A stretch of 64,000 nucleotides of DNA, from contig JAZDHF010000280.1 in the NCBI GenBank assembly GCA_043806315.1, positions 2,972 to 66,971 of the forward strand. The letters run 5' to 3'. The position numbers and the translations under genes are program-made. This stretch comes from Planctomycetota bacterium. GTDB taxonomy: Bacteria; Planctomycetota; Phycisphaerae; UBA1845. Positions 6,915 through 61,715 of the stretch are shown in pieces. Every line of letters starts with the position of its first letter. The stretch's first letter is position 1. The notes under the pieces were generated by a model. It was given only the letters and a program-made list of their open reading frames with translations. It did not search any database and was not told where the DNA came from.

Positions 6915-7148
6915 CGGTCCAATCCCGTCCTACGCTACGCCGCCCCAAGTACATGCACCGGAACACCTCACAAACCGGACGCCTTTTCGGAGTGATGCTA
7001 CGGCCTCGCGTGCGAGTTGTAAACACCGGGTCGCAGGTTCACCTTGGCGCTCGGCTTCCGACCTGCGGTGTGACGGCGCTTATCTCCGGCCCATCCGGCG
7101 CTCCGCATTCGCCCACGAGTCACCGGCCACATAGTCGGGTCATCGACC

Positions 7149-7292
7149 AGGGCAATCGCATCTTAATGTGAAACGGCGTTTATCATGCTGATAATGCGGA
7201 GGCAAGCTGGCGGGATTAAGGATCCCGAACTGATCGAACCCACGTACCAGCCGCGCCACGCGGGCTCCGGCGATTTAGATGCGATTGCCCTG
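7149..7292. mobile_element. MITE-like non-autonomous element, copy 1
   Basis: About 144 bp. Terminal inverted repeats (C)AGGGCAATCGCATCT at both ends. Flanked by direct repeat GGTCATCGACC at 7138-7148 and 7293-7303. About 98% identical to copy 2. Confidence 0.75.
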
Positions 7293-7503
7293 GGTCATCG
7301 ACCCGACGCTTTGTCCCGTGCGTGGGGACGATTCGTCGGCCCTGCAAATCCGACCTGCAACCGATATTCACCCCGACCCCCCTTTATCACTACTGGGACA
7401 AGCGTTTTTGCACGTCTACAGACCCCTTTGCCAGTACTGATAACCCGCATAGAGGTGAACATCGGCTGCAAGTACAACTCTGCACTCCCCCACGAATCAC
7501 CAG

Positions 7504-9542: not shown

Positions 9543-9621
9543 GTCATTCTGAGCGCAGCGAAGAATCTCCTTACGTGTCGAGATGCTTCGCTCCGAGATT
9601 CTTCGCTGCGCTCAGAATGAC
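9543..9621. repeat. Palindromic REP-like element (GTCATTCTGAGCGCAGCGAAGAATCTC arms)
   Basis: 27-bp arms at 9543-9569 and 9595-9621 are exact reverse complements. A related element lies at 12966-13030. Confidence 0.75.
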
Positions 9622-10296: not shown

Positions 10297-10416
10297 GAAG
10301 TTCAAAGTGCGAAGTTCAAAGTTCGAAGACGGGCTCCGCCTCTTGCGCGCCCGGCGAGAGCGTTGCGTCTCTTTGAACTTTGACTTTTGAACTTCGAACT
10401 TTGAACTTCGAACTTC
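10297..10416. repeat. Heptamer-armed hairpin element (GAAGTTC/CAAAGTT repeats), 3' of the pilin operon
   Basis: Left arm 10297-10328 and right arm 10371-10416 are imperfect reverse complements built of 7-nt repeats. Starts 4 nt after the stop at 10420. Confidence 0.8.
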
Positions 10417-10419
10417 CCT

Positions 10420-11991
10420 CTACGACGGCGAAATGCTCAACGTCGCGACCTCGATGTTGACGACGGGCGACGGACCGTCGAAGGTCGGCGTCTGCTCGCC
10501 GCCGGGTTGTGAACGGTCCACCGCCGGCGGGAAGACCCACACCGTCCGCAACAGCTCTTCGGGATCGGGGTCTTTGGTCCAATCGGTCTTCGTGCAGCTT
10601 TCGCAGCGCGAATCGCCGGCGGGGATCTCGATGTCTTCCTGGAGGATCTCGCGGTCGAGCGTCAGGATCGCTGACTCGTTGCCGTTCTGGTCGAGGAGGA
10701 TCCGGCGCTTGGCGACGCGGTAGACGTGCCCTTCGATCTCATCCACGAATGTCGTGCCGGACGGGAACATCGAGGCCAAACCGCCTGCCAGACTGCCTGT
10801 TACACCGTCAGGAGGAACGTGGATTTCCGTGGGCACGCCGGTCGGGACCTTCGCTGAGTCTGGGGGAGCGCTGCGATACGCGAGCGACCTGGGAAGCTGA
10901 ACCTGCACACGCCACCCGACGGGGAACATCACGTCGTTTTTCGACTCCATGGCCGCCGGCTCGACGGCCTGGACCGGGCGAACGAACGAGAACGGATTGG
11001 GGATTCGCGCCGGAGTGGGGTCCTGCCGCGCGTAGCGGTTGGTCGACTTGGAGCGCCGCAACGTGACATAGTACATGTCGAAGGTGCGCGTGCTCCCCAT
11101 CGCCGCCGCGGCCTCACGGACCAGTCTATCGGATTCCCCCGGCAGCACCGACGGGTCGAACGCAAGCGGCGCCGGACCGACGCGAGTGCGCAGGCGATGC
11201 AGCACCGCCCAACAAAATCGCCGCGTGGCCAGTTTCTCGTTCCATTGGTCCAGTTCCTGACCGGGCACCGCAGGGGGCGCGGCGATGGGCGGGTAAAGCC
11301 GCTCCCAGACCCGGACTTGCGGAGTGTAGAAAAGTCGATCGGGGAACGCCTCGCCCCGGTTGCGCTGGTTGACGGGATGCGGATAGTCGGTCTTCAAGAA
11401 CCGGCCTTGGACGATCTGCGTCACGGGAGGCGTCGGGAAACTCCCACCGGGGTCCTCCAAGTCCCACGGATTCTCGGGGACGGTGGCGACGACCTGGACC
11501 GTGCTGAGGAAGAGAATGTTCTCGACGTTCAGAGCGTGAACCGACGTGTCGGAGTAGGCGAGGATGGCCTTGTACCAATCGAGCCGTGGCGATGCCGGTC
11601 CCACTAACGTCGGATCGAAAAACATGTCGCCGGCCAGACTCCCCGTCGTCAATTGCGACTCCTCGAAGCACGGCGTCGGTGGAGGAGGGCAGACTTTCAC
11701 GAGACTATGTCCAGCCGGGCGAAGCAAGGCCGATAGCGTCGCATGGGCGCCGGAGGAGGCCGCTTGTTCGACGGTGTAGTCGCTGAGCGTTCGCGCCCGG
11801 TCCCAGGCGACGGGGAAAATCGTCGCCACCATCACCAATCCCAAACCGAGAATGACAATGGCGATCATCATCTCTACAAGGGAGAAGGCGCTGCGCGAAG
11901 CGAGAAGTGAGAAGTGAGAAGTGAGAAAGGGGATGAACCGACCTTCCTTCAGTCTTCTCACTTCTAACTTCAGTCTCCGTTTCTCGCTCAT
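10420..11991 (-). CDS. Large pseudopilin (prepilin-type N-terminal cleavage/methylation domain)
   Basis: 523 aa. SRSA|FSLVEMMIAIVILGLGLV class III signal after a 35-aa leader. Start overlaps the upstream stop (ATGA). Confidence 0.75.
   Translation of the reverse strand: MSEKRRLKLEVRRLKEGRFIPFLTSHFSLLASRSAFSLVEMMIAIVILGLGLVMVATIFPVAWDRARTLSDYTVEQAASSGAHATLSALLRPAGHSLVKVCPPPPTPCFEESQLTTGSLAGDMFFDPTLVGPASPRLDWYKAILAYSDTSVHALNVENILFLSTVQVVATVPENPWDLEDPGGSFPTPPVTQIVQGRFLKTDYPHPVNQRNRGEAFPDRLFYTPQVRVWERLYPPIAAPPAVPGQELDQWNEKLATRRFCWAVLHRLRTRVGPAPLAFDPSVLPGESDRLVREAAAAMGSTRTFDMYYVTLRRSKSTNRYARQDPTPARIPNPFSFVRPVQAVEPAAMESKNDVMFPVGWRVQVQLPRSLAYRSAPPDSAKVPTGVPTEIHVPPDGVTGSLAGGLASMFPSGTTFVDEIEGHVYRVAKRRILLDQNGNESAILTLDREILQEDIEIPAGDSRCESCTKTDWTKDPDPEELLRTVWVFPPAVDRSQPGGEQTPTFDGPSPVVNIEVATLSISPS
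11900..11987. repeat. Heptamer-armed hairpin element (GAGAAGT variant) inside a prepilin leader
   Basis: Arms at 11900-11930 and 11942-11987, imperfect. Translated as EKRRLKLEVRRLKEG...LTSHFSLLAS. Confidence 0.6.
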
Positions 11992-13082
11992 GGCGCTTTC
12001 GCGACCGCCTCACCGACCGGACCGCGGACGACGGCCCCGGTCAAACGATGGACGTAAAACGGCTGGGCCGCGTCCAGAAGGAACTGCCGCTTCTGCTCCG
12101 CCGTCCCCGCGTTGCTGAACAAGGATTCGTCGTACACCAACAGTCCGTCAACCGAGGGGAAATTGATGGCCACATCCCTGTTCCCCGCGTCGGTCACCAG
12201 AGAGTCAATCTTCTGCACGCCTTTGGGGTCAATGTTCAAGGTCACATTCGCTTGGTCATAGTATTTGGACACCTGCGCAGGTGGTGCACCGGGACCGCCG
12301 ACGGTCAACCCGGTCACGTCGCCACCGGGGCTTTTGTCCGGATCGGCGTCGAGGTCGCGGATCAACACGTCGCGCCGCACGCGCAACTGCCCACTGCTCG
12401 AGTAAATCATGGAAAAGAAGTTCCGATGCCGCTGGGCTTGATCGCGGTCCGGGGGGAGGGAAATCGTGAAGTCGTTGTTCTCCAACTCCTGCGGGCTGAA
12501 CGTCGCCGCTCTCACTTTGGCTGGATCGACACCGGTCCATTTCCGGTCGTTGGGATCCTCAACAACGTACCTCGGCACGACGCGCATAGGGACGGGCAGG
12601 GCGTAACTTCGTTCCGTCGTGACGTTGAAGACGTTGGCCCAGGCCTCGCGGGTGGCGGGATCGGCGGCCTTTTTCGCGTCCTGGATAATCGATACGATCC
12701 GTTGCACCCCGGCCTCATCGACGTAGAAAAACAGACCGCTGTCGCCGAAGTCGTTCTGCATGGCCCGGGCCCGGGTGGTCATCAACATGCCGCTGATAGT
12801 GTCCTGGGCCTCGGCGATGCGACGCTCCTTCCACATCGTGCTCGCGGCCGGGAGCACGATCCCCACGATCAGCAGGATGACGGCCACCACGATCACCATT
12901 TCGACCAACGTGAACGCAGAAGTTCGAAGTGCGAAGTTCGAAGTGCAAGAGAATGGGCGGCGGTTGTCACCCTGAGCGAAGCGAAGGGTCCAGCTCCAGA
13001 ACGAAGATGCTTCGCTTCGCTCAGCATGACGCTCGCCCGCCGCGCCTTTCTTGAACTTTGAACTTTGAACTTTGAACTTCAT
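11988..13082 (-). CDS. Pseudopilin with a 62-aa leader
   Basis: 364 aa. RTSA|FTLVEMVIVVAVILL. The only in-frame start upstream of the FTLVE motif is the ATG at 13082. Confidence 0.7.
   Translation of the reverse strand: MKFKVQSSKFKKGAAGERHAERSEASSFWSWTLRFAQGDNRRPFSCTSNFALRTSAFTLVEMVIVVAVILLIVGIVLPAASTMWKERRIAEAQDTISGMLMTTRARAMQNDFGDSGLFFYVDEAGVQRIVSIIQDAKKAADPATREAWANVFNVTTERSYALPVPMRVVPRYVVEDPNDRKWTGVDPAKVRAATFSPQELENNDFTISLPPDRDQAQRHRNFFSMIYSSSGQLRVRRDVLIRDLDADPDKSPGGDVTGLTVGGPGAPPAQVSKYYDQANVTLNIDPKGVQKIDSLVTDAGNRDVAINFPSVDGLLVYDESLFSNAGTAEQKRQFLLDAAQPFYVHRLTGAVVRGPVGEAVAKAP
12919..13080. repeat. Nested palindromic elements (outer heptamer arms, inner REP-like palindrome)
   Basis: Outer arms at 12919-12949 and 13050-13080. 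Inner arms at 12966-12986 and 13010-13030 (GTCACCCTGAGCGAAGCGAAG / CTTCGCTTCGCTCAGCATGAC). Confidence 0.8.
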
Positions 13083-14122
13083 TGCGGCTTGATTCCCTTG
13101 GCCAGTTTCTCCTTCAACGCCGGGTTGGAATAGACGTTGTCGTCGTTGTACGGTTCATTGATGATGTGGTCGTGGGCCGCGCCGCCGGAGAAGTCGTAAA
13201 CGAGCGACACCAACCCCGTCGCTCCCATCGCGTCCTTGGTGAGCTGGTCCTTTCCGTTGGGTCCGTAGGAGAAGATGACCGGCTGCCCGCCGTTGAGCCG
13301 GATGATCTCCGTCGAGGAGCGGTTCCATGTGTCGTGATTCCTCGAGGGGATCGGCATGAAACTGGGATTCACGGACGGGTCCTGCCAATCGCGCTCAGAG
13401 AAATAGCTAATCGGGTTGCCCCAGTCGTCGATGATTAACCGAATCTGGTGGTCGTTCGGATCCCAGGCTCCGGTTGCTCCTCCCGTACGGTCCAGGAACA
13501 GCGCCGGAGTGCCGTCGGCTTGCAGAGCGCCGACGGTGCGATTGCGGTCGGGGATGCGGTCAAGGATGGCGGAGCCCGACTCGCTCAAGGTCTCGATCGC
13601 CAGGATCATGGCCGCTTGGTCGCGGTTCTCCAGGGCATTCGCCGCTTGGTCCCCGTCTTTGTAGAAGCGCATGGCACCCCAGGAAGGCGTAGGCGCCGGC
13701 ACGATGACCGCGCCGCCAGCGGCGAGTGTTCGTACCGCTGGCGGCGGTCCGCTGCCCGGCAGCCCCGCGAGCGTGAACACCTCTAACTCATCCGGCGGGT
13801 AAGCCCCGTAACGGTCGGAATAATTCACGGTCAGGGGTGGAGGGACTAGTTTGGGTTGCCGGGCCCGGGTGATCGTGGGCTTGGCGGTTTGCTCGCGTTT
13901 GAATTCCTCGACCGCGTCCGCGACGATCTGCAGGACCGACTGCGTGTTGTTGCTGCGGCCCTTGTTGATGAAGCCGGAACTGGCCACCAGGATGGCGCTG
14001 ACCAGGATGCCGATGACGACGATGACGATGAGGAGCTCGACGAGGGTAAGCGCCCGCTGCGAGAACGAGGTTCGAAGTTCAAAGTTCAAAGTTCGAAAAC
14101 GAATACCCCATCTGCGCTGCAT
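13079..14122 (-). CDS. Pseudopilin (prepilin-type N-terminal domain)
   Basis: 347 aa. SQRA|LTLVELLIVIVVIGIL. Confidence 0.75.
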   Translation of the reverse strand: MQRRWGIRFRTLNFELRTSFSQRALTLVELLIVIVVIGILVSAILVASSGFINKGRSNNTQSVLQIVADAVEEFKREQTAKPTITRARQPKLVPPPLTVNYSDRYGAYPPDELEVFTLAGLPGSGPPPAVRTLAAGGAVIVPAPTPSWGAMRFYKDGDQAANALENRDQAAMILAIETLSESGSAILDRIPDRNRTVGALQADGTPALFLDRTGGATGAWDPNDHQIRLIIDDWGNPISYFSERDWQDPSVNPSFMPIPSRNHDTWNRSSTEIIRLNGGQPVIFSYGPNGKDQLTKDAMGATGLVSLVYDFSGGAAHDHIINEPYNDDNVYSNPALKEKLAKGIKPQ

Positions 14123-14156
14123 TGTCCTGACCTTTTGAACTTCGACCTTTGAACTT
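14067..14156. repeat. Heptamer-armed hairpin spanning the start codon of the 13079..14122 gene
   Basis: Arms at 14067-14099 (coding) and 14131-14156 (5' UTR), about 21/25 paired. The ATG (14120-14122) lies in the loop. Confidence 0.75.
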
Positions 14157-14164
14157 TAGGCTTT

Positions 14165-15301
14165 TCAGTCCGTCTTTCGCGTCCAGTTGAGTACGTCGTC
14201 GTCGGTGCCGTAACGGGCGTCGGGACCGGCGCTGATCAACAGATAGGCGTCCTTTTGCACCGGCGTGGGGCGGGCCTTCACCGAACCGTCGAGGATGAAG
14301 CGTGCGAAGGTGTGCTTGTAATCGTCCCCCTGAGAGGCGACGTCTACGACCTTCACCGAGGGGTCCGGCGATTTGGCGCCATGAATCCAATGCTGTTGCC
14401 CATGTTCATCGGTGCTGGCGCCGAAATCGAGACCCTTGACCTCACCCAACAGGCCTTCCGCGCTGCCCGTGATAATCGCGTTGTCCTCTTGCCAGTAGAT
14501 GCCCGGCTTGCCCGAGGCGCCCGTCATCCGCAGGGCGGTTGGGTTGGCCTTGTAATACAGGATCGGATGGTCCCAGGGGTCGGTGAAGACGCGCTGGCCG
14601 CTGGCGATCTTGGGCGAACCACCCTCCAGCGCAGCCAAGTTGAGGATCGTCCCTTTGTCGGCCAGTTCTTGCAAAGTCTTGGCGCTCTCCTTCATCTTCT
14701 CGTCGACGTACCCGGCCCCGCCGTAACGCGGGAACTTCTCCTTGCCCGTAGCGGGGTCAACGGCGTAGATGCCCGATTTCCCAGTCGCCGCGTCGTATTT
14801 CTTGTGCGTGTCGTGCGACCAAAGTCCTTTGGCCTCGGGGGTCACGTCGCGGAACCCCGGCGTACCCAAGCCGTCCGCTCCGATCATCGCGTGAACGAGC
14901 AGATGTGCGCCGGCGATTCGGACCTTCGTGTTTGGATCTTCGCCCTGCGGATCGGCGATCGTCTGGCGGTCGGTTGGAGGATCCGTGTCATCCCCGGCGG
15001 ACGGCGGCAGGGTCCCGCCCAAGGCCGCCTCGGCGCGAAAGGCGTTGATGCCGGTGTCCAGAGCCTTGAACTGGGCGCTGGCCTGAGCGAGTTTCGCCTG
15101 ACCCCTCACCGCCGAAAACGCGGGCAACAGCGCCGCGAGCAGCAGAGCGATGATCGCGACCACCACCATCATCTCCACTAAAGTGAACGCGCGAACCGGA
15201 AGTTCGAAGTTAGAAGTTCGAAGTTCGAAGACCGAAGGGCGTCGCCTCCGAGCCCGGTCGTGTATCTTTGAACTTTGAACTTTGAACTTTGAACTTTTCA
15301 T
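14165..15301 (-). CDS. GspG-like pseudopilin with large central insert
   Basis: PVRA|FTLVEMMVVVAIIALLL. C-terminal LLISAGPDARYGTDDDVLNW resembles the GspG C-terminus. ATG at 15301 chosen, 5 nt after the upstream stop. Confidence 0.75.
   Translation of the reverse strand: MKSSKFKVQSSKIHDRARRRRPSVFELRTSNFELPVRAFTLVEMMVVVAIIALLLAALLPAFSAVRGQAKLAQASAQFKALDTGINAFRAEAALGGTLPPSAGDDTDPPTDRQTIADPQGEDPNTKVRIAGAHLLVHAMIGADGLGTPGFRDVTPEAKGLWSHDTHKKYDAATGKSGIYAVDPATGKEKFPRYGGAGYVDEKMKESAKTLQELADKGTILNLAALEGGSPKIASGQRVFTDPWDHPILYYKANPTALRMTGASGKPGIYWQEDNAIITGSAEGLLGEVKGLDFGASTDEHGQQHWIHGAKSPDPSVKVVDVASQGDDYKHTFARFILDGSVKARPTPVQKDAYLLISAGPDARYGTDDDVLNWTRKTD
15198..15298. repeat. Heptamer-armed hairpin element inside a prepilin leader
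   Basis: Arms at 15198-15230 (GAAGTTC repeats) and 15266-15298 (CTTTGAA repeats). Translated as KSSKFKVQSSK...VFELRTSNFEL. Confidence 0.8.
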
Positions 15302-15305
15302 CTGA

Positions 15306-16436
15306 TTACTCCGTCCACGGCGGAAGGTTGGAGACATCGTCACTCGTACCGTAGCGCCCGTCGACGCCGGCGCTGATCAGCAGATACCCGTCCGCGTTCA
15401 CCGCCCGGAGCGGCATGGTCGGCTTGGCGTCGGTCGGGTGGGCCGCGTAGGCGCTGTAGATCTTGCGGTCGATGATATATCGAGCGAAGTTTTCGCGATG
15501 CTCGATGAGCTCCTGCTTTTCCGCAGTCACCATGTCCACCGCCGTTTCCTTCGCCCCGGACAGCGCGATGGTATGTTTGGCTCCCGTGTTGCCGAAATCC
15601 CAGCCACGCTCCGTATCCGCGTTCCCTTTCCCGGTGAAGGGGATGTTGTCCTGATGGAAGTACATCGGGGGGCCCTTCTCCTGGTCCCCACCGTCGTAGT
15701 TGTTGTCCACCTTTCGGACGTCCTCGACCATGTTCGATTCCCGGCCGTGGGCGTTGGCCGCGTAATAGAGGATCGGTTGATCGAACGCATCGACGACGAC
15801 CGGAAGGTTCTGCACGCCTTGGGGGTCGTTGTCGTCTGAGGTCCAGCCCGTACCAAACAGTGCTCGATTCGGCCGCCCGGGCAAGTCCTTCGTCTTTTTC
15901 ACCGCCAGCCCGTTCGTATCCGCGTACGGTCCGCCGCGAGGCTGCAACACCTGCCCCGGCCCGAGCGGATCCGGCGTATACCACTTCCACGGCAGCTTCT
16001 GCAGGTCGTCCTTGTTCGGTACAATACTGCGTTTGATGTACCCCAACTGATCGACCCCCATCAGCATCGCCGGCAACCAGTGCGCGCCGGTGACGACCGG
16101 CTTCTTCTCCAGGAATGGAAACTCCCCTAGGAGCGACTGAAAGACTGGTGGATTGCCAATCGGCGGATGGGCGAACGAAGGCGGATAGCCGTTGGTCCGC
16201 GGGAAGTCCGGCCCGTTGTCGTTCTTGAACATTTCCAGCCCGACCTTGATGGAGTCGAGGGCCTTCTTGGTCGTCATCTTTTTCGCTGCGTTGCGCGCGG
16301 CGCTCAATGACGGGACCAGAATCCCAATGAGCAGGGTGATGATGAAGATCACGGTCAGCAACTCCACGAGCGAGAAGCCTCGCCGCCGCGAATGCGGAAT
16401 GGTGAATTCGGAATGTCGAAATTCAAAATTGAGCAT
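15306..16436 (-). CDS. GspG-like pseudopilin with large central insert
   Basis: RRRG|FSLVELLTVIFIITLLIGILVP (canonical Gly at -1). C-terminal LLISAGVDGRYGTSDDVSN. Confidence 0.8.
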   Translation of the reverse strand: MLNFEFRHSEFTIPHSRRRGFSLVELLTVIFIITLLIGILVPSLSAARNAAKKMTTKKALDSIKVGLEMFKNDNGPDFPRTNGYPPSFAHPPIGNPPVFQSLLGEFPFLEKKPVVTGAHWLPAMLMGVDQLGYIKRSIVPNKDDLQKLPWKWYTPDPLGPGQVLQPRGGPYADTNGLAVKKTKDLPGRPNRALFGTGWTSDDNDPQGVQNLPVVVDAFDQPILYYAANAHGRESNMVEDVRKVDNNYDGGDQEKGPPMYFHQDNIPFTGKGNADTERGWDFGNTGAKHTIALSGAKETAVDMVTAEKQELIEHRENFARYIIDRKIYSAYAAHPTDAKPTMPLRAVNADGYLLISAGVDGRYGTSDDVSNLPPWTE

Positions 16437-16460
16437 GCTTAGCCTCCATTCCGCATTCGC
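16388..16460. promoter_or_regulatory. Perfect 15-bp stem hairpin bracketing the SD and start codon of the first pseudopilin gene
   Basis: GCGAATGCGGAATGG (16388-16402) and CCATTCCGCATTCGC (16446-16460). The loop holds GGAGG and the ATG (16434-16436). The region has a 7-nt GAAnnnn periodicity. Confidence 0.6.
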
Positions 16461-16469
16461 CGTTTCGGC

Positions 16470-17726
16470 TCAACCTTTAGAAACATTCTCGATCAGTTTG
16501 ACCAGAGGCAGGAACAGCGCGATCACGATGAACCCGACGATACTGCCCAGGAGGACGACCATGAGCGGCTCAAGGAGGGAGACCAGGCTCGCCACCGCGA
16601 CGTCGATGTCCTCCTCGTAGTTGTCCGCGATCTTCAGCAGCATCTTGTCGAGCTCGCCGGTTTCCTCGCCGACGTCGATCATATTGGTCACCAATCCGTC
16701 GCAAACCCTGGTCGCCCGCAACGGGGCGGCGAAGCTCTCGCCCTCGCGGATGGAGTCGTGTACTTTCTCCATGGCCCGCGAGTAAACCTCGTTGCCGGAG
16801 GTTTCGCGAGTGATAAGGATCGCCTCCAGGATCGGCACGCCCGCGCTGATGAGCGTGCCCAGGGTGCGCGTAAATCGCGCCACCGCGTTTTTCTCCAGCA
16901 GGTTTCCGAAAACGGGGATTTTCAACCCCACGAAGTCCACCACGTACCGCCCGCCCTTGGAGGATCGGATCAGCTTGAACACGAAATAGATCGCGAACGG
17001 GCCGAACAGGATAACCGCCCACCCCGGCGGTTTCCCCTTCATCACCCAGTCCGACGTATTCATCAACACCAACGTCATACCCGGCAAGGTGACGTCGAAG
17101 TCCCTGAAAATGTCTTTGAACTTGGGGATGACCACGATCATGATGCCGGTCACGATGCCCATGGCGAACGTAACCACGACGATCGGGTAGATCATCGCCC
17201 CGATGATCTTTCGCTTCAGCTTCTCCGCTTTCTCCATGAACTCGGCCAAACGCTGCAGGATCACGTCGAGCACGCCGCCCGTCTCCCCCGCCGCGACCAT
17301 GTTCACGTACAGACGGTTGAACGCTTTGGGGTGCTTGGAACACGCCTCCGACAACGTCGAACCGCCCTCGATATCCTCCGCGACCCCGCGCAGAATGTTC
17401 TTCAGCGTCCCCGGTTTTTGTTGCTCTTCGAGGATGTTGAGGCTGCGGAGGATCGGCAAACCGGCGTCCTGCAGGGTGGAAAGCTGGCGAGTGACCTCGG
17501 TCAGGACCTTGGTCTTGACCCGCCCGAAGGCGAAGCCGCCGCCTTTCTTCTTCTTCTTGCCCGGAGCGGCGGCCTTCGCCTTGGTGCCGCCCTTTTCGCG
17601 GATGCGCGTCGGGAAGTAGCCGAGGTTGCGGATTTTGGCGAGAGCGTCCTCGTTGGAGAGCGCCTCGAGCTCGTCCTTCACCTGCTCCCCGCCCTGATTC
17701 ATGGCCTCATAGGCGAATGTCGGCAT
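16470..17726 (-). CDS. Type II secretion/type IV pilus platform protein (GspF/PilC family)
   Basis: 418 aa. Two T2SSF-type repeats with TM segments. Sits next to the secretion ATPases. Confidence 0.9.
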   Translation of the reverse strand: MPTFAYEAMNQGGEQVKDELEALSNEDALAKIRNLGYFPTRIREKGGTKAKAAAPGKKKKKGGGFAFGRVKTKVLTEVTRQLSTLQDAGLPILRSLNILEEQQKPGTLKNILRGVAEDIEGGSTLSEACSKHPKAFNRLYVNMVAAGETGGVLDVILQRLAEFMEKAEKLKRKIIGAMIYPIVVVTFAMGIVTGIMIVVIPKFKDIFRDFDVTLPGMTLVLMNTSDWVMKGKPPGWAVILFGPFAIYFVFKLIRSSKGGRYVVDFVGLKIPVFGNLLEKNAVARFTRTLGTLISAGVPILEAILITRETSGNEVYSRAMEKVHDSIREGESFAAPLRATRVCDGLVTNMIDVGEETGELDKMLLKIADNYEEDIDVAVASLVSLLEPLMVVLLGSIVGFIVIALFLPLVKLIENVSKG

Positions 17727-17770: not shown

Positions 17771-19579
17771 TTATTCCTCGATGATCGTTTCCTTCACGAC
17801 CTCATCGAGGGTGGTGATCCCTTCGTAAATCGCCATCAAGCCGGTCTCACGCAGCGTGCGCATGCCGCGCTTGACCGCTTCGTGTCGCAGCACGGCCGTC
17901 GATCCCTTGCGCATGATGAGCTCGCGCAAGGGGTCGTCCAGGATCATTGACTCGTAAATCCCCATCCGGCCCCGGTAGCCGGTGTTGTTGCAGTAGTCGC
18001 ACCCCTTACCGTAAAAGAACATCCGATCGCCGACGTCCTCCGGCCGCAGGTCGACTTCCATCAGTTGCTCTTCGGTCGGGCGGTACTCGGCCTTGCAGTT
18101 GGTACAAATCCGCCGCACCAACCGCTGAGCCACGATCGCCTCAAGTGTCGCCGTAATCAAAAACGGCTCCATCCCGAGGTCCAACAAGCGCGCGATAGCG
18201 GACGGTGCGTCGTTCGTATGCAGCGTCGTGAAGACCAGGTGTCCCGTCAACGAGGCTTGAACGCTGATTTGGGCCGTCTCCAAGTCGCGGATTTCGCCGA
18301 CGAGGATGATGTCCGGGTCCTGCCGCAAGAAGCTACGGAGGCAGCGGGCGAAGGTCAGCCCCACGTCCGGGCGGACCTGCGTTTGAATGATCCCGTCGAT
18401 GTCGTACTCCACGGGGTCCTCGGCGGTAAGAATCTTCACGTCCGGCTCGTTGAGTTCCGAGAGAGCGGAATACAGCGTCGTGGTTTTGCCGCAGCCGGTT
18501 GGACCCGTGTTGATGATGATCCCATTGGGTTTACGCATGAGCTGGCGGAAGGTCGCCAACTCATCGTCGCGCATTCCGATCTTATCGAGGCTGAGCGCCA
18601 CGACGGAGCGGTCGAGCACGCGGAGCACCACGCTTTCCCCGAACATCGTCGGCAGCACGCTGACGCGAAGGTCGATGGGCATCCCCCGCAAGGACAGCTC
18701 GATGCGTCCATCCTGGGGGAGTCGCCGCTCGGCGATGTCGAGGTTGGCCATGACCTTGATCCGCGAGGCGATGGCCAGGGCCACGTACCGCGGCGGCGGC
18801 ACCATCTCGTACAGCACGCCGTCGATGCGGTAGCGCATCTTGAACTCCTCGTCGAACGGTTCGAAGTGGATGTCGCTCGCCTTGTCCTTGATGGCTTGGA
18901 GCAACACCAGGTTGAGGAGCTTCTTGACCGGGTTGAGGCCCATCATCTCCTTGATTTCGGCGAGGTCGATGGAGTCTCCGCGGTTGTTGAACTTAGCGAG
19001 GTCTTCGTCATCGGCCAGCTCGCCGATCAGGTTGGCGATGGATTCCTGCTCCCCTTCGGGATAGAACCGGTCGATGGCGTTTTGCAACTCTTGGGGGGAG
19101 CAGAGGAACGCCTTGATGTTGAAGCCCAAGAGCGTCTTGAGATCATCCGTGGCCATGAAGTTGTCCGGGTTATCGAGGGCCACGGAGAGCTCGTTCCGCT
19201 CGCGATTCAACTCGAAGGCGACCACCCGGTAGGTGTTGGCCATTTGGGCGGTCATCACCGCGACCACCTCGGGAGGAACGTCGAGCTTTCCCAGGTCCAC
19301 CGTGCCCATTCCGCTCTGGGCGGCCAGGGCAATGTTGAGCTCTTCCTCGGTGACGTAACCCAACTCGACGAGGATTTGTCCCAGCGGGCCTCGCTTCTGC
19401 TTTTGGATGTCGAGAGCCTCGTGGACCTGCGTGCGGCGCAGCTTCCCCATCTTGATGAGGATGCGACCGAGCTGCCGCCCGCGAAGCTGCTCGATGGGCG
19501 GCATCTTCAGCTTCGCCTTTGCGGCGGGGGCCGCGCTCGGCTTGGCGGTCGCAGGATTGGTGGTCGGTTGAGGCGGCAT
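17771..19579 (-). CDS. GspE/PilB-family secretion ATPase, copy 1
   Basis: 602 aa. N-terminal T2SSE_N-like region, Walker A GPTGCGKTTT, C-terminal CxxC...CxxC cluster. Confidence 0.9.
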   Translation of the reverse strand: MPPQPTTNPATAKPSAAPAAKAKLKMPPIEQLRGRQLGRILIKMGKLRRTQVHEALDIQKQKRGPLGQILVELGYVTEEELNIALAAQSGMGTVDLGKLDVPPEVVAVMTAQMANTYRVVAFELNRERNELSVALDNPDNFMATDDLKTLLGFNIKAFLCSPQELQNAIDRFYPEGEQESIANLIGELADDEDLAKFNNRGDSIDLAEIKEMMGLNPVKKLLNLVLLQAIKDKASDIHFEPFDEEFKMRYRIDGVLYEMVPPPRYVALAIASRIKVMANLDIAERRLPQDGRIELSLRGMPIDLRVSVLPTMFGESVVLRVLDRSVVALSLDKIGMRDDELATFRQLMRKPNGIIINTGPTGCGKTTTLYSALSELNEPDVKILTAEDPVEYDIDGIIQTQVRPDVGLTFARCLRSFLRQDPDIILVGEIRDLETAQISVQASLTGHLVFTTLHTNDAPSAIARLLDLGMEPFLITATLEAIVAQRLVRRICTNCKAEYRPTEEQLMEVDLRPEDVGDRMFFYGKGCDYCNNTGYRGRMGIYESMILDDPLRELIMRKGSTAVLRHEAVKRGMRTLRETGLMAIYEGITTLDEVVKETIIEE

Positions 19580-50862: not shown

Positions 50863-50997
50863 GATTAACTCCTAGACTTCCTAACGGACGCAAGCGCCCG
50901 GGCACTTCGCCATGGCCCGGGCCGCGAGTTTGGCGAGCCAGCATACCGTATTCGCGGCGAACCGAAAGGGTGTAACGCCGCGGCCCGATTCCGGGGC

Positions 50998-51141
50998 AGG
51001 GCAATCGCATCTTAATGTGAAACGGCGTTTATCATGCTGATAATGCGGAGGCAAGCTGGCGGGATTAAGGATCCCGAACTGATCGAACCCACGTGCCAGC
51101 CGCGCCACGCGGGCTCCGGCGATTTAGATGCGATTGTCCTG
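50998..51141. mobile_element. MITE-like non-autonomous element, copy 2
   Basis: Same orientation as copy 1, with 2 substitutions. Flanked by direct repeat GATTCCGGGGC at 50987-50997 and 51142-51152. Lies 136 bp upstream of the OPT start. Confidence 0.75.
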
Positions 51142-54874: not shown

Positions 54875-57800
54875 CTATCGCACGTTGAAGTACTTCGCAT
54901 GTCGGTGGTGGGTGATGAGGGCGGTGGTGGTCTGCTCGGGTTCGAGTTGGAACTCCTCGGAGAGCGTGACGCCGATGCGGCCCGGTTCCAGCAGCGGCCA
55001 GAGCTTTAGTTGATCTTCCAGTCGCGGGCAGGCGGGGTAGCCGAAGCTGTACCGCGAGCCCTGGTAGCGCTGTTTGAAGATTTCCTGCCGCTGCCGGGCG
55101 TCGTGTCCGGCGATGCCCCATTCCACGCGGATTTGCTTGTGAATGTATTCGGCCAATGCTTCCGCTGATTCCACGCCTAGTCCGTGAAGATGCAGGTAGT
55201 CCTGATAACGATCCTGCGCGAACCATTCCCGTGCCACCGCGCTGACACGCCGCCCCGCGGTGACGACGCTGAACGCGGCCACGTCGTAGACGCCGCTGGA
55301 GACCGGCTTGAAGAAGTCGCTCAAGCACCAGTACGGCGGCTTGCCCATGCGCGGAAACTCAAAGACGCTCAATTGCCGATCGCGGTCGTCGGGGTCATAG
55401 ACAATCAGGGCGTCGCCGTCGGACTGCATGGGCCAGAAGCCATAGACGGCCTGTAATTGCAGAATGTTCTCCCGCTCACACTGTTCCAACAGTCGCCGCA
55501 AGATTGGTCGGACCTCGTCATTGATGTAGCGTTTGAAATCCTCCGGACTGCGGCGGTGCTTGCGATACTGCCATTGCACCTGGAAGAGCATGTTCTCGTT
55601 CAAATAGGCAAGGGCCGCGCGGGCGTCGATTCGCTCCACCACCCGCCGACCCCAGAAGGGCGGCTGCGGGACAGGTTCGTCGCGGGAGATATCCGATCGC
55701 GGCGGGATGTAGCCGAAACGTTCGGAGGCTTCCTCGTGGAGATCGGCCCCGAAGTTCGAAGTTCGAAGTTCGAAGTTCGAAGAAAGGGGGACTGCTGCCG
55801 GCGAGTTGTCTTTGAACTTCGACCTTTGAACTTTGACCTTCTCATGGGGTTCGAAGGGGCCCGCGACGATCTGGTCCATCAAATGCAGACCCGCGAAGGC
55901 ATCCTTGGCATAGAACAGTGAACCACTGTATTCGGGCCGAAGGTCCTGCTCGACGTACTTTCGCGTCAGGGCGGCCCCGCCGAGGATGACCGGGGGGTCG
56001 AGTCCCCGCTCATTCAAGACCGCGAGATTCTCACGCATCACGACGGTGGACTTGACCAGCAGCCCGGACATGCCGATGGCGTCGGCGTTGTTTTTCTCAT
56101 AGGCCTCGATGATGTTGTTGATCGGCTGCTTGATGCCCAGGTTGAAAACCGTATATCCGTTGTTGGTCAGAATGATATCGACGAGGTTCTTGCCGATGTC
56201 GTGAACGTCGCCGCGGACGGTGGCGAGCACGATCGACCCCTTGCCGCCTTGGTCGGCCTTGTCGAGGTGCGGTTCGAGGAAGCGGACGGCGGCCTTCATC
56301 GTCTCCGCCGATTGCAGCACGAAAGGCAACTGCATCTGCCCCGCCCCGAACAGGTCGCCGACGGTCTTCATCCCGTCGAGCAGAATATCGTTGATGATGT
56401 CGAGAGGGCGATGGGTCAGCATGGCCTCTTCGAGGTCTTCATCCAGACCGACGCGGTCGCCGTTGATGATCCGCAGCTTCAGATGATCCTCGACGTTTTT
56501 GGGTTTCTCCGTCTCCGCCGCAGCCGCCGTTTCGACGTTCTCGAATGCTCTCAGTAGTTCCTGCAGCGGGTCATAGCCGTCGCGGCGGCGATCGAAGATC
56601 AAATCCTCGGCGAAGCGGCGATGTTCTTCGTCGATCTTGAATAACGGCACGATTCGGGAGACGTGCAGGATGGCTGCGTCCAGACCGCGCTCGCGGGCGT
56701 GGTGCAAAAAGACGCTGTTGAGCACGCGCCTCGCGGGGGCCTTAATCCCGAAGCTGATGTTGCTCAGACCCAGCAGAGTGTGCACGCCGGGGCATTCATC
56801 CTTGATCGCAGCGATCGCGTCCAAGGTTTCCAAGCCGAGACGCCGGTCATCCTCGTTGCCCGTGCAGATGGTGAAGGTGAGGGGGTCGAAAATCAGGTCG
56901 CCGGCGCGAATGCCGTGGCGGTTGGTCACCAGATCGAAAATGCGTTTGGCGACTTCGACCTTTCGCCCGCACGTCTTGGCCATTCCCTGCTCGTCGATGG
57001 TGAGGGCGATGAGTGCCGCGCCGTGACGCTTGGCCAGACGGCAGACCTTGTCCAGCCGATCCTCGCCGTCTTCGAGGTTGATGGAGTTGATGACGCATTT
57101 GCCGCCGGCGAGCTTGAGGGAGGCCTCGAGCACCGGCACTTCCGTGCTGTCGATGACCAGCGGCGCGGTGACGTCGGTGACGAAGCGCCTGAGCACCGCG
57201 GTCATGTCCGCGACCTCGTCGCGTCCGACGTAGGCCGCACAGACGTCGAGCAGGTGGCTGCCGTATTTCACCTGCTCGCGGCCCATCTGCACCATGCCGT
57301 CCACGTCCCCGGCGGCCAGCAGTTCACGGAACCGCTTCGACCCGTTGGCGTTGGTTCGCTCGCCGATGGCCAGCACTTCGCCGTCTTGTCGCAAGGTCAC
57401 GGCCTGGTAGAGACTGCTCACCGACGGTTCGAGCTTGGCACGGCGGGGCCTGGGCGCTCGTGACCCGACGGCGTCAACGACGGCGGCCAAGTGCGCCGGC
57501 GTCGTCCCGCAGCAGCCGCCGACGATGTTCACCCCGTCCACCTCAATGAACTCGACCAGCCACCGGGTCAGCTCCGCGGGCGTGAGGGCGTAGTAGGGTT
57601 TCCCGTTGACGAGCTGCGGCAGGCCGGCGTTGGGCTGGACGATGAGCAGTCGATCGCTGTGTCCGCTGAGGTAGCGGACGTGTTCGCTCATCTCCTGCGG
57701 CCCGGTCGCGCAGTTCAGACCGATGCCGACGACCTCGTCGTAGGCCGCGATCGCGGTCAACGCCGCAGCGATCTCCGTGCCCAGGAGCATCGTTCCGGTC

Positions 57801-58384
57801 GTTTCGATCGTGACCGTGCAGAGGATCGGAACCTGCCGACCCTTCTCGGTCATCGCGTCGATACAAGCGACGATGGCCGACTTGCATTGCAGCAAGTCCT
57901 GACACGTTTCGAGGAGCAGGGCATCGACCCCGCCGTCGAGCAGTCCTCGCCCTTGCTCGGTATAGCTGTCGAGGATTTCGTCCCAGGTCGTCTGCCCGAG
58001 CGACGGCACCCGCGTGCCGGGCCCCATTGAACCGATGACGAAGCGCGGACGGTCGGGCTTGTCGAACTCTCGGACGGCGTCGCGGGCGATTTCCGCGGCC
58101 TTTTTGTTGATCTCGTAGGTGCGCTCGGCGATTCCGAAATCCGAGAAGACGATCTTGTTGGCCCCGAAGGTGTTGGTCATCACCGCGTCGCAGCCGACGG
58201 AAAGGAACGATCGGTGAATGTCGCGCACGACGTCGGGCCGGGTGGCCGTCACGATGTCCACACAGTTCTCGTGGCCTTCGTAGTCGCTCAGGGGCAACTC
58301 GCGCGCATGGATGCTCGTCCCCATGGCCCCGTCGAGGACGAGCACCCGCTCCCGAAGGGCCTGGATGAATGGTGATTCGGTCAT
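54875..58384 (-). CDS. metH: Cobalamin-dependent methionine synthase
   Basis: 1169 aa from MTESPFIQAL. Hcy and pterin barrels, B12 motif GDVHDIGKN and a C-terminal AdoMet-activation domain. Confidence 0.9.
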   Translation of the reverse strand: MTESPFIQALRERVLVLDGAMGTSIHARELPLSDYEGHENCVDIVTATRPDVVRDIHRSFLSVGCDAVMTNTFGANKIVFSDFGIAERTYEINKKAAEIARDAVREFDKPDRPRFVIGSMGPGTRVPSLGQTTWDEILDSYTEQGRGLLDGGVDALLLETCQDLLQCKSAIVACIDAMTEKGRQVPILCTVTIETTGTMLLGTEIAAALTAIAAYDEVVGIGLNCATGPQEMSEHVRYLSGHSDRLLIVQPNAGLPQLVNGKPYYALTPAELTRWLVEFIEVDGVNIVGGCCGTTPAHLAAVVDAVGSRAPRPRRAKLEPSVSSLYQAVTLRQDGEVLAIGERTNANGSKRFRELLAAGDVDGMVQMGREQVKYGSHLLDVCAAYVGRDEVADMTAVLRRFVTDVTAPLVIDSTEVPVLEASLKLAGGKCVINSINLEDGEDRLDKVCRLAKRHGAALIALTIDEQGMAKTCGRKVEVAKRIFDLVTNRHGIRAGDLIFDPLTFTICTGNEDDRRLGLETLDAIAAIKDECPGVHTLLGLSNISFGIKAPARRVLNSVFLHHARERGLDAAILHVSRIVPLFKIDEEHRRFAEDLIFDRRRDGYDPLQELLRAFENVETAAAAETEKPKNVEDHLKLRIINGDRVGLDEDLEEAMLTHRPLDIINDILLDGMKTVGDLFGAGQMQLPFVLQSAETMKAAVRFLEPHLDKADQGGKGSIVLATVRGDVHDIGKNLVDIILTNNGYTVFNLGIKQPINNIIEAYEKNNADAIGMSGLLVKSTVVMRENLAVLNERGLDPPVILGGAALTRKYVEQDLRPEYSGSLFYAKDAFAGLHLMDQIVAGPFEPHEKVKVQRSKFKDNSPAAVPLSSNFELRTSNFGADLHEEASERFGYIPPRSDISRDEPVPQPPFWGRRVVERIDARAALAYLNENMLFQVQWQYRKHRRSPEDFKRYINDEVRPILRRLLEQCERENILQLQAVYGFWPMQSDGDALIVYDPDDRDRQLSVFEFPRMGKPPYWCLSDFFKPVSSGVYDVAAFSVVTAGRRVSAVAREWFAQDRYQDYLHLHGLGVESAEALAEYIHKQIRVEWGIAGHDARQRQEIFKQRYQGSRYSFGYPACPRLEDQLKLWPLLEPGRIGVTLSEEFQLEPEQTTTALITHHRHAKYFNVR
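55751..55841. repeat. Heptamer-armed hairpin element in frame inside metH
   Basis: Arms at 55751-55782 ((GAAGTTC)x4) and 55810-55841. Translated as KVKVQRSKFKDNSPAAVPLSSNFELRTSNF in the linker between the B12 and activation domains. Confidence 0.8.
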
Positions 58385-58474
58385 ATTGGGTGCCACTGGC
58401 GGCTCGTCCGCCAGTGCGGTCGCACGGCGCAACATCGAGCGACCGTAGCGTTCATCGCCCGCCCGAGGCGAGTC

Positions 58475-58662
58475 GCCCCGGAGGGGCGGTCGACCGTAGC
58501 CCACGACTTCAGTCGTGGGACCAGGGACGACGCTCGATCTTTCCCCCTCCCCCATCCCGCCGCCGGCGGCGGCGGGGAAGGGGGAGGGGGTTCTCTTTTC
58601 AGACGCGCCGGTTCCCAGGGCCGAAGGCCCTGGACTACGTTCGCCACGCCCCTAACGGGGCG
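58475..58662. repeat. Cluster of GC-rich hairpins in the metH / zinc-ribbon-gene divergent region
   Basis: Hairpins at 58500-58519, 58543-58590 (about 20-bp stem), 58615-58633 and 58647-58662. Confidence 0.5.
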
Positions 58663-61598: not shown

Positions 61599-61603
61599 AA
61601 GAT

Positions 61604-61715
61604 CGAAGTTCAAAGTTCGAAGTTCAAAAAGGGACGGCTATTTCTCTGGAAGTTGAGTCGCCGCGCGCCGCAACGTCTACATTCTTCGAACTTTGAACTT
61701 TCAACTTTGAACTTC
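61604..61715. repeat. Heptamer-armed hairpin element at the GHL10/ROK junction
   Basis: Arms at 61604-61632 and 61684-61715. Confidence 0.8.

Follow-up and report, generated by a model that had tools for sequence, protein, structure and literature searches.

g4, the fourth of five genes with class III-type N-termini downstream of a GspE-like and a GspF-like gene, is located in a 64-kb stretch of DNA (the window) from one uncultured Phycisphaerae metagenome-assembled genome (MAG), to which all counts given for the window refer. With a probability of about three in four, g4 is a functional minor pseudopilin gene with a translationally coupled start at ATG 13082, whose repeat-encoded 56-residue leader would be translated and then removed and would thus serve as a permissive landing site for palindromic repeats. 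The structure of the locus, the conserved coupled start, the conservation of the reading frame, purifying selection on the mature protein and the family nature of both repeats are established by the data given here. The relevant features of g4 are the following:

11988..13082, minus strand: g4, open reading frame (ORF) for a precursor of 364 residues; the predicted mature protein has 308 residues
13079..13082, minus strand: ATGA overlap, the g3/g4 translational-coupling junction; the g4 ATG (13082-13080) overlaps the g3 stop codon TGA (13081-13079), and orthologues have an equivalent ATGA, GTGA, TAATG or TGATG
12915..13082, minus strand: leader coding region, 56 codons (168 nt), hydrophilic peptide MKFKVQSSKFKKGAAGERHAERSEASSFWSWTLRFAQGDNRRPFSCTSNFALRTSA with a net charge of +7
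13049..13080, minus strand: 5' arm of the outer heptamer-periodic hairpin, (AAGTTCA)x4, translated KFKVQSSKFK
12959..13037, minus strand: inner inverted dimer resembling repetitive extragenic palindromic (REP) elements, in the loop of the outer hairpin; two units of ~25 nt, whose GC-rich flanks 13037-13031 and 12965-12959 also pair
12919..12950, minus strand: 3' arm of the outer hairpin, (CTTCGMA)x4, translated SCTSNFALRTS
12846..12914, minus strand: class III signal core, consisting of F+1 T L V E+5 M and, after it, a hydrophobic helix (FTLVEMVIVVAVILLIVGIVLPA)

In NCBI, the identical g4 protein is present as gene call P0001 (hypothetical protein, Planctomycetota MAG). Its N-terminus reads MKFKVQSSKFKKGAAGERHAERSEASSFWSWTLRFAQGDNRRPFSCTSNFALRTSA, followed by the cleavage site and FTLVEMVIVVAVILLIVGIVLPA. 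The 80 open codons that precede Phe+1 (codon 12914-12912) contain no in-frame ATG, GTG or TTG other than the start ATG, which stands 56 codons before Phe+1. This uniqueness, as well as the coupling of the ATG to an upstream stop codon, namely the TGA of gene 13079..14122, had been recognized correctly in an earlier interpretation made from the letters of the DNA alone (the sequence-only reading). The leader length of 62 residues given there has to be corrected to 56 (168 nt, 13082..12915), which is also the length of the peptide that it quoted. Its description of the leader as built entirely from two nested palindromic elements holds for nearly all of the segment; the repeats do not cover its final four codons (RTSA) or a few linker codons.

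The N-terminus of g4 contains Phe+1, Glu+5 and a hydrophobic stretch of ~20 residues. F57, T58, E61 and M62 are invariant in an alignment of 30 homologues, and pilin-family models align to g4 from residues 55-57. With its basic hydrophilic leader, Phe+1, Glu+5 and the ~20-residue helix, and with GspE/F-like and four other pseudopilin genes in its neighbourhood, g4 thus resembles proteins with known class III signal peptides (PMC4471445). It differs from them in having Ala instead of Gly at position -1, and in the length of the leader: prepilin leaders are short, as the sequence-only reading had correctly presumed, and the 56 residues of g4 are outside their range of 6-26 residues (PMC4471445).

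An inverted-repeat search identified the two outer arms 12919-12950 and 13049-13080 (32 nt each, 84% complementary, 98 nt apart) and the two inner arms 12959-12986 and 13010-13037 (28 nt each, 82% complementary). The proposed outer heptamer-arm hairpin could therefore be confirmed, and the inner palindrome, which had been placed at 12966-13030, corresponds exactly to the two REP-like units. For the sense RNA of the leader region a folding energy of -105.1 kcal/mol (z = -6.4) was calculated, for the antisense RNA one of -110.5 kcal/mol (z = -7.6); in both cases none of 200 shuffled sequences folded as well. The nested fold is far beyond chance. Pairing at the base of the outer stem includes the G of the start AUG and the nucleotides that follow.

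Unit A of the inner dimer (13030-13006) reads GTCATGCTGAGCGAAGCGAAGCATC and can be parsed as GTC-ATGCT-GAGCGAAGCGA-AGCAT-C. The reverse complement of unit B (12990-12966), GTCACCCTGAGCGAAGCGAAGGGTC, is parsed as GTC-ACCCT-GAGCGAAGCGA-AGGGT-C. The general form of the unit is GTC-AnnCT-GAGCGAAGCGA-AGnnT-C; 5-bp stems co-vary around a constant loop of 11 nt, which, judged from these sequences, is as expected for REP-type units. A second such dimer is found at 9543-9621, with perfect 27-nt arms (GTCATTCTGAGCGCAGCGAAGAATCTC and its reverse complement) and ATTCT/AGAAT stems, and the same architecture is present in the related loci L039 and L056. Located in the gap that follows the pseudopilin operon, the copy at 9543-9621 creates spurious ORFs (..HSERSEES.. 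/ ..FAALRMT..). Unit A of g4, like one unit of the copy at 9543-9621, is preceded by CGTC, whereas other copies have TGTC; the GTC is part of the stem. A search of Rfam at gathering and E-value thresholds yielded no family for the heptamer hairpin or the REP-like dimer; the single sub-threshold match, mir-483 on the g5 hairpin, is regarded as chance. A scan of 26 ORFs of the window with Pfam detected no transposase or RAYT domain.

A protein search with g4 yielded 253 homologues, many of which are named prepilin-type, FimT or PulG. From genome and metagenome collections, 63 syntenic loci were compiled, all from Phycisphaerae or Planctomycetota MAGs; L064-L067 were added by looking up the encoding contigs. 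The loci are related and their counts not fully independent, which is why distinct spacer lengths were counted rather than loci. The mature N-terminus FTLVEMVIVVAV... is nearly invariant in the orthologues, and the leader is hypervariable. The g3 stop codon was located in 22 close loci. In 20 of these, the stop is overlapped by an ATG or GTG (ATGA, GTGA, TAATG or TGATG) from which an uninterrupted reading frame leads to FTLVE. In these 20 loci the interval between the g3 stop and Phe takes 17 distinct values from 47 to 176 nt, which carry unrelated repeats and are all 2 mod 3. By our own count this corresponds to at least 16 frame-preserving insertion or deletion events, for which the chance probability is ~(1/3)^16. 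In the two exceptions, L056 and L060, the interval is 1 mod 3, and a canonical ATG or GTG is found in the hairpin loop instead. The loops of L032 and L060 contain a GGAGG Shine-Dalgarno sequence, which in L060 precedes the in-loop start.

The junction between g4 and g5 displays the same behaviour: 32 of 37 intervals are 2 mod 3, with lengths of up to 383 nt, that is, leaders of up to 129 residues. In a set of 42 distinct long coupled leaders with a mean net charge of +5.8, just 2% and 24% are open in the two alternative frames. This basic charge, if the leaders are translated as predicted, fits a cytoplasmic leader. Of the explanations that had been offered for g4, the synthesis of a protein with a long repeat-derived leader is thus strongly supported at the sequence level by the conserved, open, in-frame start over 17 spacer lengths and by the g4-to-g5 junction.

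It has to be considered whether the palindromes are untranslated intercistronic RNA, with g4 starting downstream at a non-canonical codon or at Met62 (ATG 12897-12895). Gene callers indeed start about one quarter of the g4 orthologues at MVIVV..., which is the Met after FTLVE; initiation would be impeded by a hairpin of such stability at the start codon; and REPs annotated as N-terminal are in many cases actually extragenic (PMC3733652). However, between the 3' arm and FTLVE of g4 no in-frame canonical or near-cognate codon was found; the only in-frame near-cognate codons upstream of FTLVE are three AAG, all located within the 5' arm of the hairpin. Moreover, FTLVE, which precedes Met62, is conserved as protein sequence. 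In 31 distinct orthologues its codons vary synonymously (TTC/TTT, ACC/ACG/ACA/ACT, TTG/CTC/CTG/CTT, GTC/GTG, GAA/GAG), Val being replaced by Ile (ATC) in six of them; translation should therefore start upstream of FTLVE. If g4 started at Met62, it would lack Phe1 and Glu5, the residues by which the pilin N-terminus is defined, and the preservation of the frame from the stop-overlapping ATG over 17 spacer lengths is not expected of an untranslated spacer. This explanation is improbable, and non-canonical initiation, which had been considered from the sequence alone, is also disfavoured by the canonical loop starts of the frame-breaking orthologues. Gene calls beginning with MVIVV..., e.g. P0004 of the L027 locus, are then, on the same comparative grounds, most plausibly misannotations. 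Such late calls were seen in L027/L065, L064, L066, L067, L002 and others; the repeat-encoded leader or a GTG start is skipped and the pilin signature is lost.

Decay of g4, with an N-terminus disrupted by the insertion of repeats, is still less probable and was rejected. An unusual leader, an N_methyl hidden Markov model score below threshold, and the possibility of assembly or population variants in a MAG could be taken as signs of it. Yet the ORF is intact at 364 residues and its stop codon overlaps the start ATG of g5, similar or longer repeat-built leaders are widespread in orthologues, and FTLVE is kept despite changing codons. The ratio of nonsynonymous to synonymous substitution rates (dN/dS) of mature g4 versus nine relatives is 0.15-0.32, about 0.2 on the whole, and all of these genes are intact as well. 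Due to the frame of the stop-overlapping ATG, the codons of FTLVE and the dN/dS values, non-canonical initiation is unnecessary and decay can be discarded.

The sequence-only reading had treated the leader as an oddity of one gene; however, long repeat-built leaders of 33-129 residues are common in the pseudopilin operon of this clade. Close orthologues contain other heptamer families at the same site of the g4 leader (MTPIRQSTIDNRQSAIPA, MKIIRHSPFAIRHSRA, MIANCRLPIADCRL..., MNGEWRLAKSEW...HSAFSIQHSAF), L003 and L025 have a different palindrome (...PLPSRGEGWVRGE...LTLTPTLSLEGRG...), and the leaders of L001 and L034 contain a single heptamer array without a partner arm. L056 combines a heptamer hairpin with the same REP-like dimer in a leader of 58 residues, and L014 has another nested arrangement of 60 residues. 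Distant orthologues have plain basic leaders of ~8-30 residues without hairpins, and their start is mostly still close to the stop codon. It is therefore plausible to assume that coupling is ancestral and that the repeats were added later. For the g5 orthologues of L001, L002, L003, L026, L028 and L029, leaders of 79-129 residues with other palindromic repeats (..IAHRFIGGNASPSIWNSPVGTVERSSRPSGTG..ETLGYFHASLRDA before FSLVE) are predicted. They are in frame with an ATG overlapping the stop codon of g4; alternatively, translation could begin at an in-frame TTG at -57.

The closest relatives of the window's g4 are L026 (84% identical), L027/L064/L066 (74-80%), L030, L031 and L067. An orthologue comparison for the nested insert, as proposed along with the sequence-only reading, gave a divided answer: in L026, L027, L030, L031 and L067 the same overlapping ATG is directly followed by a hairpin (AAGTTCA)x4 ... 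(CTTCGAA)x4 encoding KFKVQSS, whereas the inner dimer is absent. The g4 leaders of these loci comprise 35-42 residues, are all in frame, and have loops that differ from that of the window. Because the closest relatives possess the hairpin with other loops and without the dimer, the REP-like dimer at g4 appears to be specific to the lineage of the window. The idea that a REP element was inserted into an L027-type loop was rejected; the loop of the window shares nothing with that of L027, which points to replacement and not to insertion.

The 5' arm of the window is 93-97% identical to the arms of L027, L030, L031 and L067, and its arms are 82-97% identical to those of L027, L030 and L031. Among the latter three loci, arms plus loop (97 nt; L027 596-696, L030/L031 3002-3102) are 100% identical, compared with 61-74% identity at the 4-fold sites of the adjacent g4. 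The loop variant of these three g4 leaders (GACGCAACGCTCTCGC...GAGGCGGAGCCCGT) recurs in the window after g5, where L030 and L031 carry another loop. Identical hairpins in three lineages and the occurrence of their loop at another site of the window suggest active copying or gene conversion. Judged from these identities, the hairpin family would be either under constraint or continually re-copied and homogenized, with loops being exchanged between copies. With regard to features of miniature inverted-repeat transposable elements, the arms could serve as terminal inverted repeats, and the same loop variant is found at different sites in different genomes; no target-site duplication was recognized at the site of the hairpin and dimer, where the loop is replaced relative to the relatives rather than simply filled.

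A period-7 scan combined with an inverted-repeat search detected heptamer-periodic hairpins at all six cistron boundaries of the operon, as opposed to three in the remaining ~58 kb. In addition to the hairpin in g4, the genes and hairpins are:

17771..19579: T2SSE ATPase gene (GspE-like)
16470..17726: T2SSF gene (GspF-like)
16388..16467, minus strand: heptamer-type hairpin at the GspF/g1 boundary, unit GGAATGC; the g1 ATG (16436) is in the loop
15306..16436: g1, pseudopilin
15199..15300, minus strand: heptamer hairpin within the leader of g2; g2 probably starts at ATG 15301, which is just 5' of the hairpin, 4 nt past the g1 stop, and preceded by GGAG
14165..15343: g2, pseudopilin
14066..14157, minus strand: heptamer hairpin at the g2/g3 boundary; the g3 ATG (14122) is in the loop
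13079..14122: g3, pseudopilin
11897..11971, minus strand: heptamer hairpin in the g5 leader (35 residues), unit GAAGTGA; the g5 ATG overlaps the g4 stop
10420..11991: g5, pseudopilin
10297..10416, minus strand: heptamer hairpin directly behind the stop codon of g5; its loop differs by one extra base from that in the g4 leader of L027, L030 and L031
48306-48375: heptamer hairpin outside the operon, between convergent genes
55751-55841, minus strand: heptamer hairpin inside metH (54875..58555, 1226 residues), GAAGTTC family, in frame, encoding ..EKVKVQRSKFKDNSPAAVPLSSNFELRTSNF..
61599-61715: heptamer hairpin outside the operon, filling exactly the gap between two co-directional genes

The copy in metH is located in the linker between the B12-binding and the activation domain, both of which align to solved MetH structures. 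In this linker ~29 residues do not align to Thermus MetH, and it is ~16-28 residues longer than the linkers of relatives. No clean empty site for the hairpin could be demonstrated among the homologues, which all have 40-56% identity and linkers of varying length. Since a copy of the hairpin family is in frame inside the intact metH gene, such elements seem to be translated and tolerated; the heptamer hairpin, with its copies inside and outside the operon, is a dispersed repeat family, and at least one copy must be translated. The likely true start of metH is an ATG near 58384 (MTESPFIQ...) rather than the ATG 58555 of the longest ORF. An Acido-Lenti-1 RNA motif (Rfam RF01687; 46.9 bits versus a gathering score of 37) at 58474-58519 on the minus strand is probably part of the 5' leader of metH, and a GC-rich palindrome is found just upstream of it at 58543-58589. 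A third dispersed palindromic family of ~147 nt is present at 7147-7293 and 50997-51141, with arms CCAGGGCAATCGCATCTTAAT and ATTTAGATGCGATTGCCCTGG and a 105-nt loop.

All heptamer units of the window and of the related loci fit AA[TG]nnn[GC]; they include AAGTTCA/G, AAGTGAG, AATGGCG and AATCGGC. In sense orientation, the 5' arm often contains an A where the 3' arm contains a C, so that the mRNA has A.C mismatches and the antisense strand G.U pairs; this is seen in two different unit families. Avoidance of stop codons does account for this asymmetry in the GAAGTTC family, where CTTTGAA would generate a TGA. As a general cause it was rejected: the CCAATTG/CAATCGG family is left unexplained, and out-of-frame units also mostly contain C. 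A protein search with the consensus of the hairpin-encoded peptide yielded just one weak match, the element being too restricted to its lineage or of too low complexity for such a search.

The distribution of the hairpins raises the question of whether they have been selected in the pseudopilin operon as nucleic-acid elements acting in cis, the peptide being a by-product. This interpretation is tentative; it is compatible with a translated leader and would add to the explanation given above. Possible roles are the blocking of independent 30S entry, so that coupling alone yields each minor pseudopilin at a 1:1 ratio, mRNA stabilizers or processing sites that set major-to-minor ratios, and slippage-prone switches. 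Besides the concentration at the operon boundaries and the identity of the 97-nt hairpins in three loci, the start codons at the base or in the loop of hairpins and the GGAGG in the loops of L032 and L060 speak for such a function; the 7-nt unit, whose gain or loss shifts the frame, would suit a switch, and a role as post-transcriptional signals has been suggested for the heptanucleotide arrays beside start codons in Beggiatoaceae (PMC4679880). On the other hand, distant orthologous operons lack any hairpin, and members of the family are also present within metH, at a site between convergent genes and behind the final operon gene. At the same site, other lineages have unrelated heptamer units, single arrays or different palindromes, and the loops are swapped between sites, a pattern that fits dispersed, homogenized selfish repeats. 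Each of the assembled copies has the ON frame, and no variation in copy number could be observed. The hairpins lack a U-tract and do not look like canonical intrinsic terminators; a scan of the window for promoters and terminators gave 11 terminator-like sites versus 10.2 expected and no promoters in the hairpins. Permissiveness most simply explains the enrichment at the operon junctions. The broader notion that the hairpins are a lineage-wide cis-element system of Phycisphaerae, which is maintained far above neutral expectation, restricts ribosome entry to coupling or to a start presented in the loop and thereby sets the stoichiometry of the pseudopilins, or that they are 7-nt slippage switches, is unlikely. 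If it were true, the class III leaders of 33-129 residues would be the visible footprint of this system and not neutral baggage.

We know several types of repeats with which these elements can be compared. In-frame palindromic repeats in functional genes have been described as Rickettsia palindromic elements (RPEs; Ogata 2000, as cited in PMC3184786) and intragenic REPs (PMC3733652); they add 20-80 residues at tolerant positions, many at the N-termini of ORFs (PMC3733652; PMC3184786). In common with them, the elements studied here are short palindromes that occur between genes and in frame within genes, in this case in a cleavable leader and in the metH linker. The likeness to RPEs includes an in-frame element in a host gene under purifying selection, as seen from dN/dS, the conservation of the frame and the copy in metH. 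In contrast to RPEs, the outer arms have a 7-nt period, two elements are nested, and the site is a class III leader that would be removed after translation. The comparison refers to behaviour alone; no sequence relationship to RPEs is claimed. N-terminal cases of intragenic REPs may really be extragenic (PMC3733652), a caveat that is addressed here by the frame analysis of the orthologous sequences. Thus, the g4 leader is best interpreted as an RPE-like or REP-like in-frame repeat insertion, nested, within a prepilin leader.

Similar to REPs, bacterial interspersed mosaic elements and the "CGTC-tagged" REPs (Di Nocera 2013, PMC3733652), the inner element consists of inverted stem-loop units of ~25 nt whose dimers fold into a larger hairpin. 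Imperfect palindromes of 20-40 nt, often in inverted pairs, as is typical of REP units, are found in the g4 dimer and in the copies at 9543-9621, L039 and L056, and the pattern of location, between unidirectional and between convergent genes, also matches that of REPs. The tag differs, being CGTC in some copies and TGTC in others. By sequence, the inner element resembles the CGTC-tagged REPs of PMC3733652.

With respect to the outer arms, arrays of the heptanucleotide TAACTGA are concentrated at start codons in Beggiatoaceae and cyanobacteria, as untranslated direct repeats (PMC4679880). Both kinds of repeats form abundant, lineage-specific 7-nt arrays of 3-5 copies at translation starts, with mixed related 7-mers and insertions or deletions in steps of 7 nt (PMC4679880). 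However, the units of the window follow AA[TG]nnn[GC] and do not match the TAACTGA unit or that of short tandemly repeated repetitive (STRR) sequences. Furthermore, the arrays of the window are inverted pairs that form long hairpins, whereas 1 of 170 sets in the Beggiatoaceae genome is inverted (PMC4679880); and they would be translated, whereas those of Beggiatoaceae lie upstream of the ATG. Mycobacterial intercistronic repeat units (MIRUs) are located between operon cistrons and contain ORFs whose ends overlap the flanking genes, and Neisseria REP2 provides the downstream gene with a site for ribosome binding as well as an ATG (PMC3184786). The hairpins at cistron boundaries with a Shine-Dalgarno sequence and an ATG in their loops are reminiscent of both. 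In contrast, the ORFs of MIRUs are separate mini-cistrons that are not fused to the downstream protein, and sequences and organisms differ. No published description of the heptamer-hairpin repeat family was found.

Taken as a coupled start with a translated leader, the data suggest the following sequence of events. Ribosomes that terminate at the UGA of g3 would re-initiate at the overlapping AUG 13082 by translational coupling, and would unwind and translate both palindromes (168 nt, almost all repeat). The product would be a basic cytoplasmic leader of 56 residues that a prepilin peptidase cuts at A/FTLVE, leaving the mature pseudopilin unchanged. A repeat-built leader probably does no harm, because it is cut off. 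The repeats are presumably dispersed and actively homogenized palindromic elements; they may accumulate here since the stretch encoding a cleavable leader, positioned at a cistron boundary, permits insertions, as does the metH linker, and selection would keep them in frame and free of stop codons.

Several observations weigh against this explanation. The scores of g4 with TIGR02532 (13.8 bits, cutoff 16.3) and PF07963 (15.7 bits, cutoff 21.2) are below the curated cutoffs; the PF07963 cutoff is passed by g1, g2, g3, g5 and many g4 orthologues. Residue -1 of g4 is Ala and not the canonical Gly, which is described as invariant in bacteria and critical in model systems (PMC4471445). Within the window, Ala occupies this position in four of the five pseudopilins, g2-g5 (VRA/QRA/TSA/RSA before F/L/F/F; regions 15187, 14050, 12915 and 11887), Gly being present in g1 only; g4 orthologues have Ala or Gly, and close orthologues of the window's pseudopilins mostly Ala. 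No prepilin peptidase gene was seen in the 64-kb window. A fold of about -100 kcal/mol has the start codon of g4 at its base, which suggests that initiation depends on coupling; independent 30S entry looks unlikely because the G of the AUG and the next bases are paired in the outer stem. In the leader segment of the window itself two of the three reading frames are open. Evidence from this single sequence for translation of the leader is therefore weak, and the case is based on the comparative data. Finally, the conservation of the hairpins far above that of synonymous sites suggests that their role may exceed that of a passive passenger.

The findings extend the range of class III leaders from 6-26 residues to a predicted 56 residues in g4 and to as many as ~129 in the clade. 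If these leaders are processed, the prepilin peptidases would be indifferent to the length and content of the leader and tolerant of Ala at position -1. A systematic annotation error is exposed as well, in that gene callers start many g4 genes past FTLVE and thereby delete the pilin signature. In Phycisphaerae, an undescribed family of heptamer-periodic hairpins that is conserved above synonymous sites has come to light. Cleavable leaders at coupled junctions appear to be safe harbours in which palindromic repeats pile up, nest and turn over, and would thus provide a natural example of selection filtering selfish repeats by reading frame.

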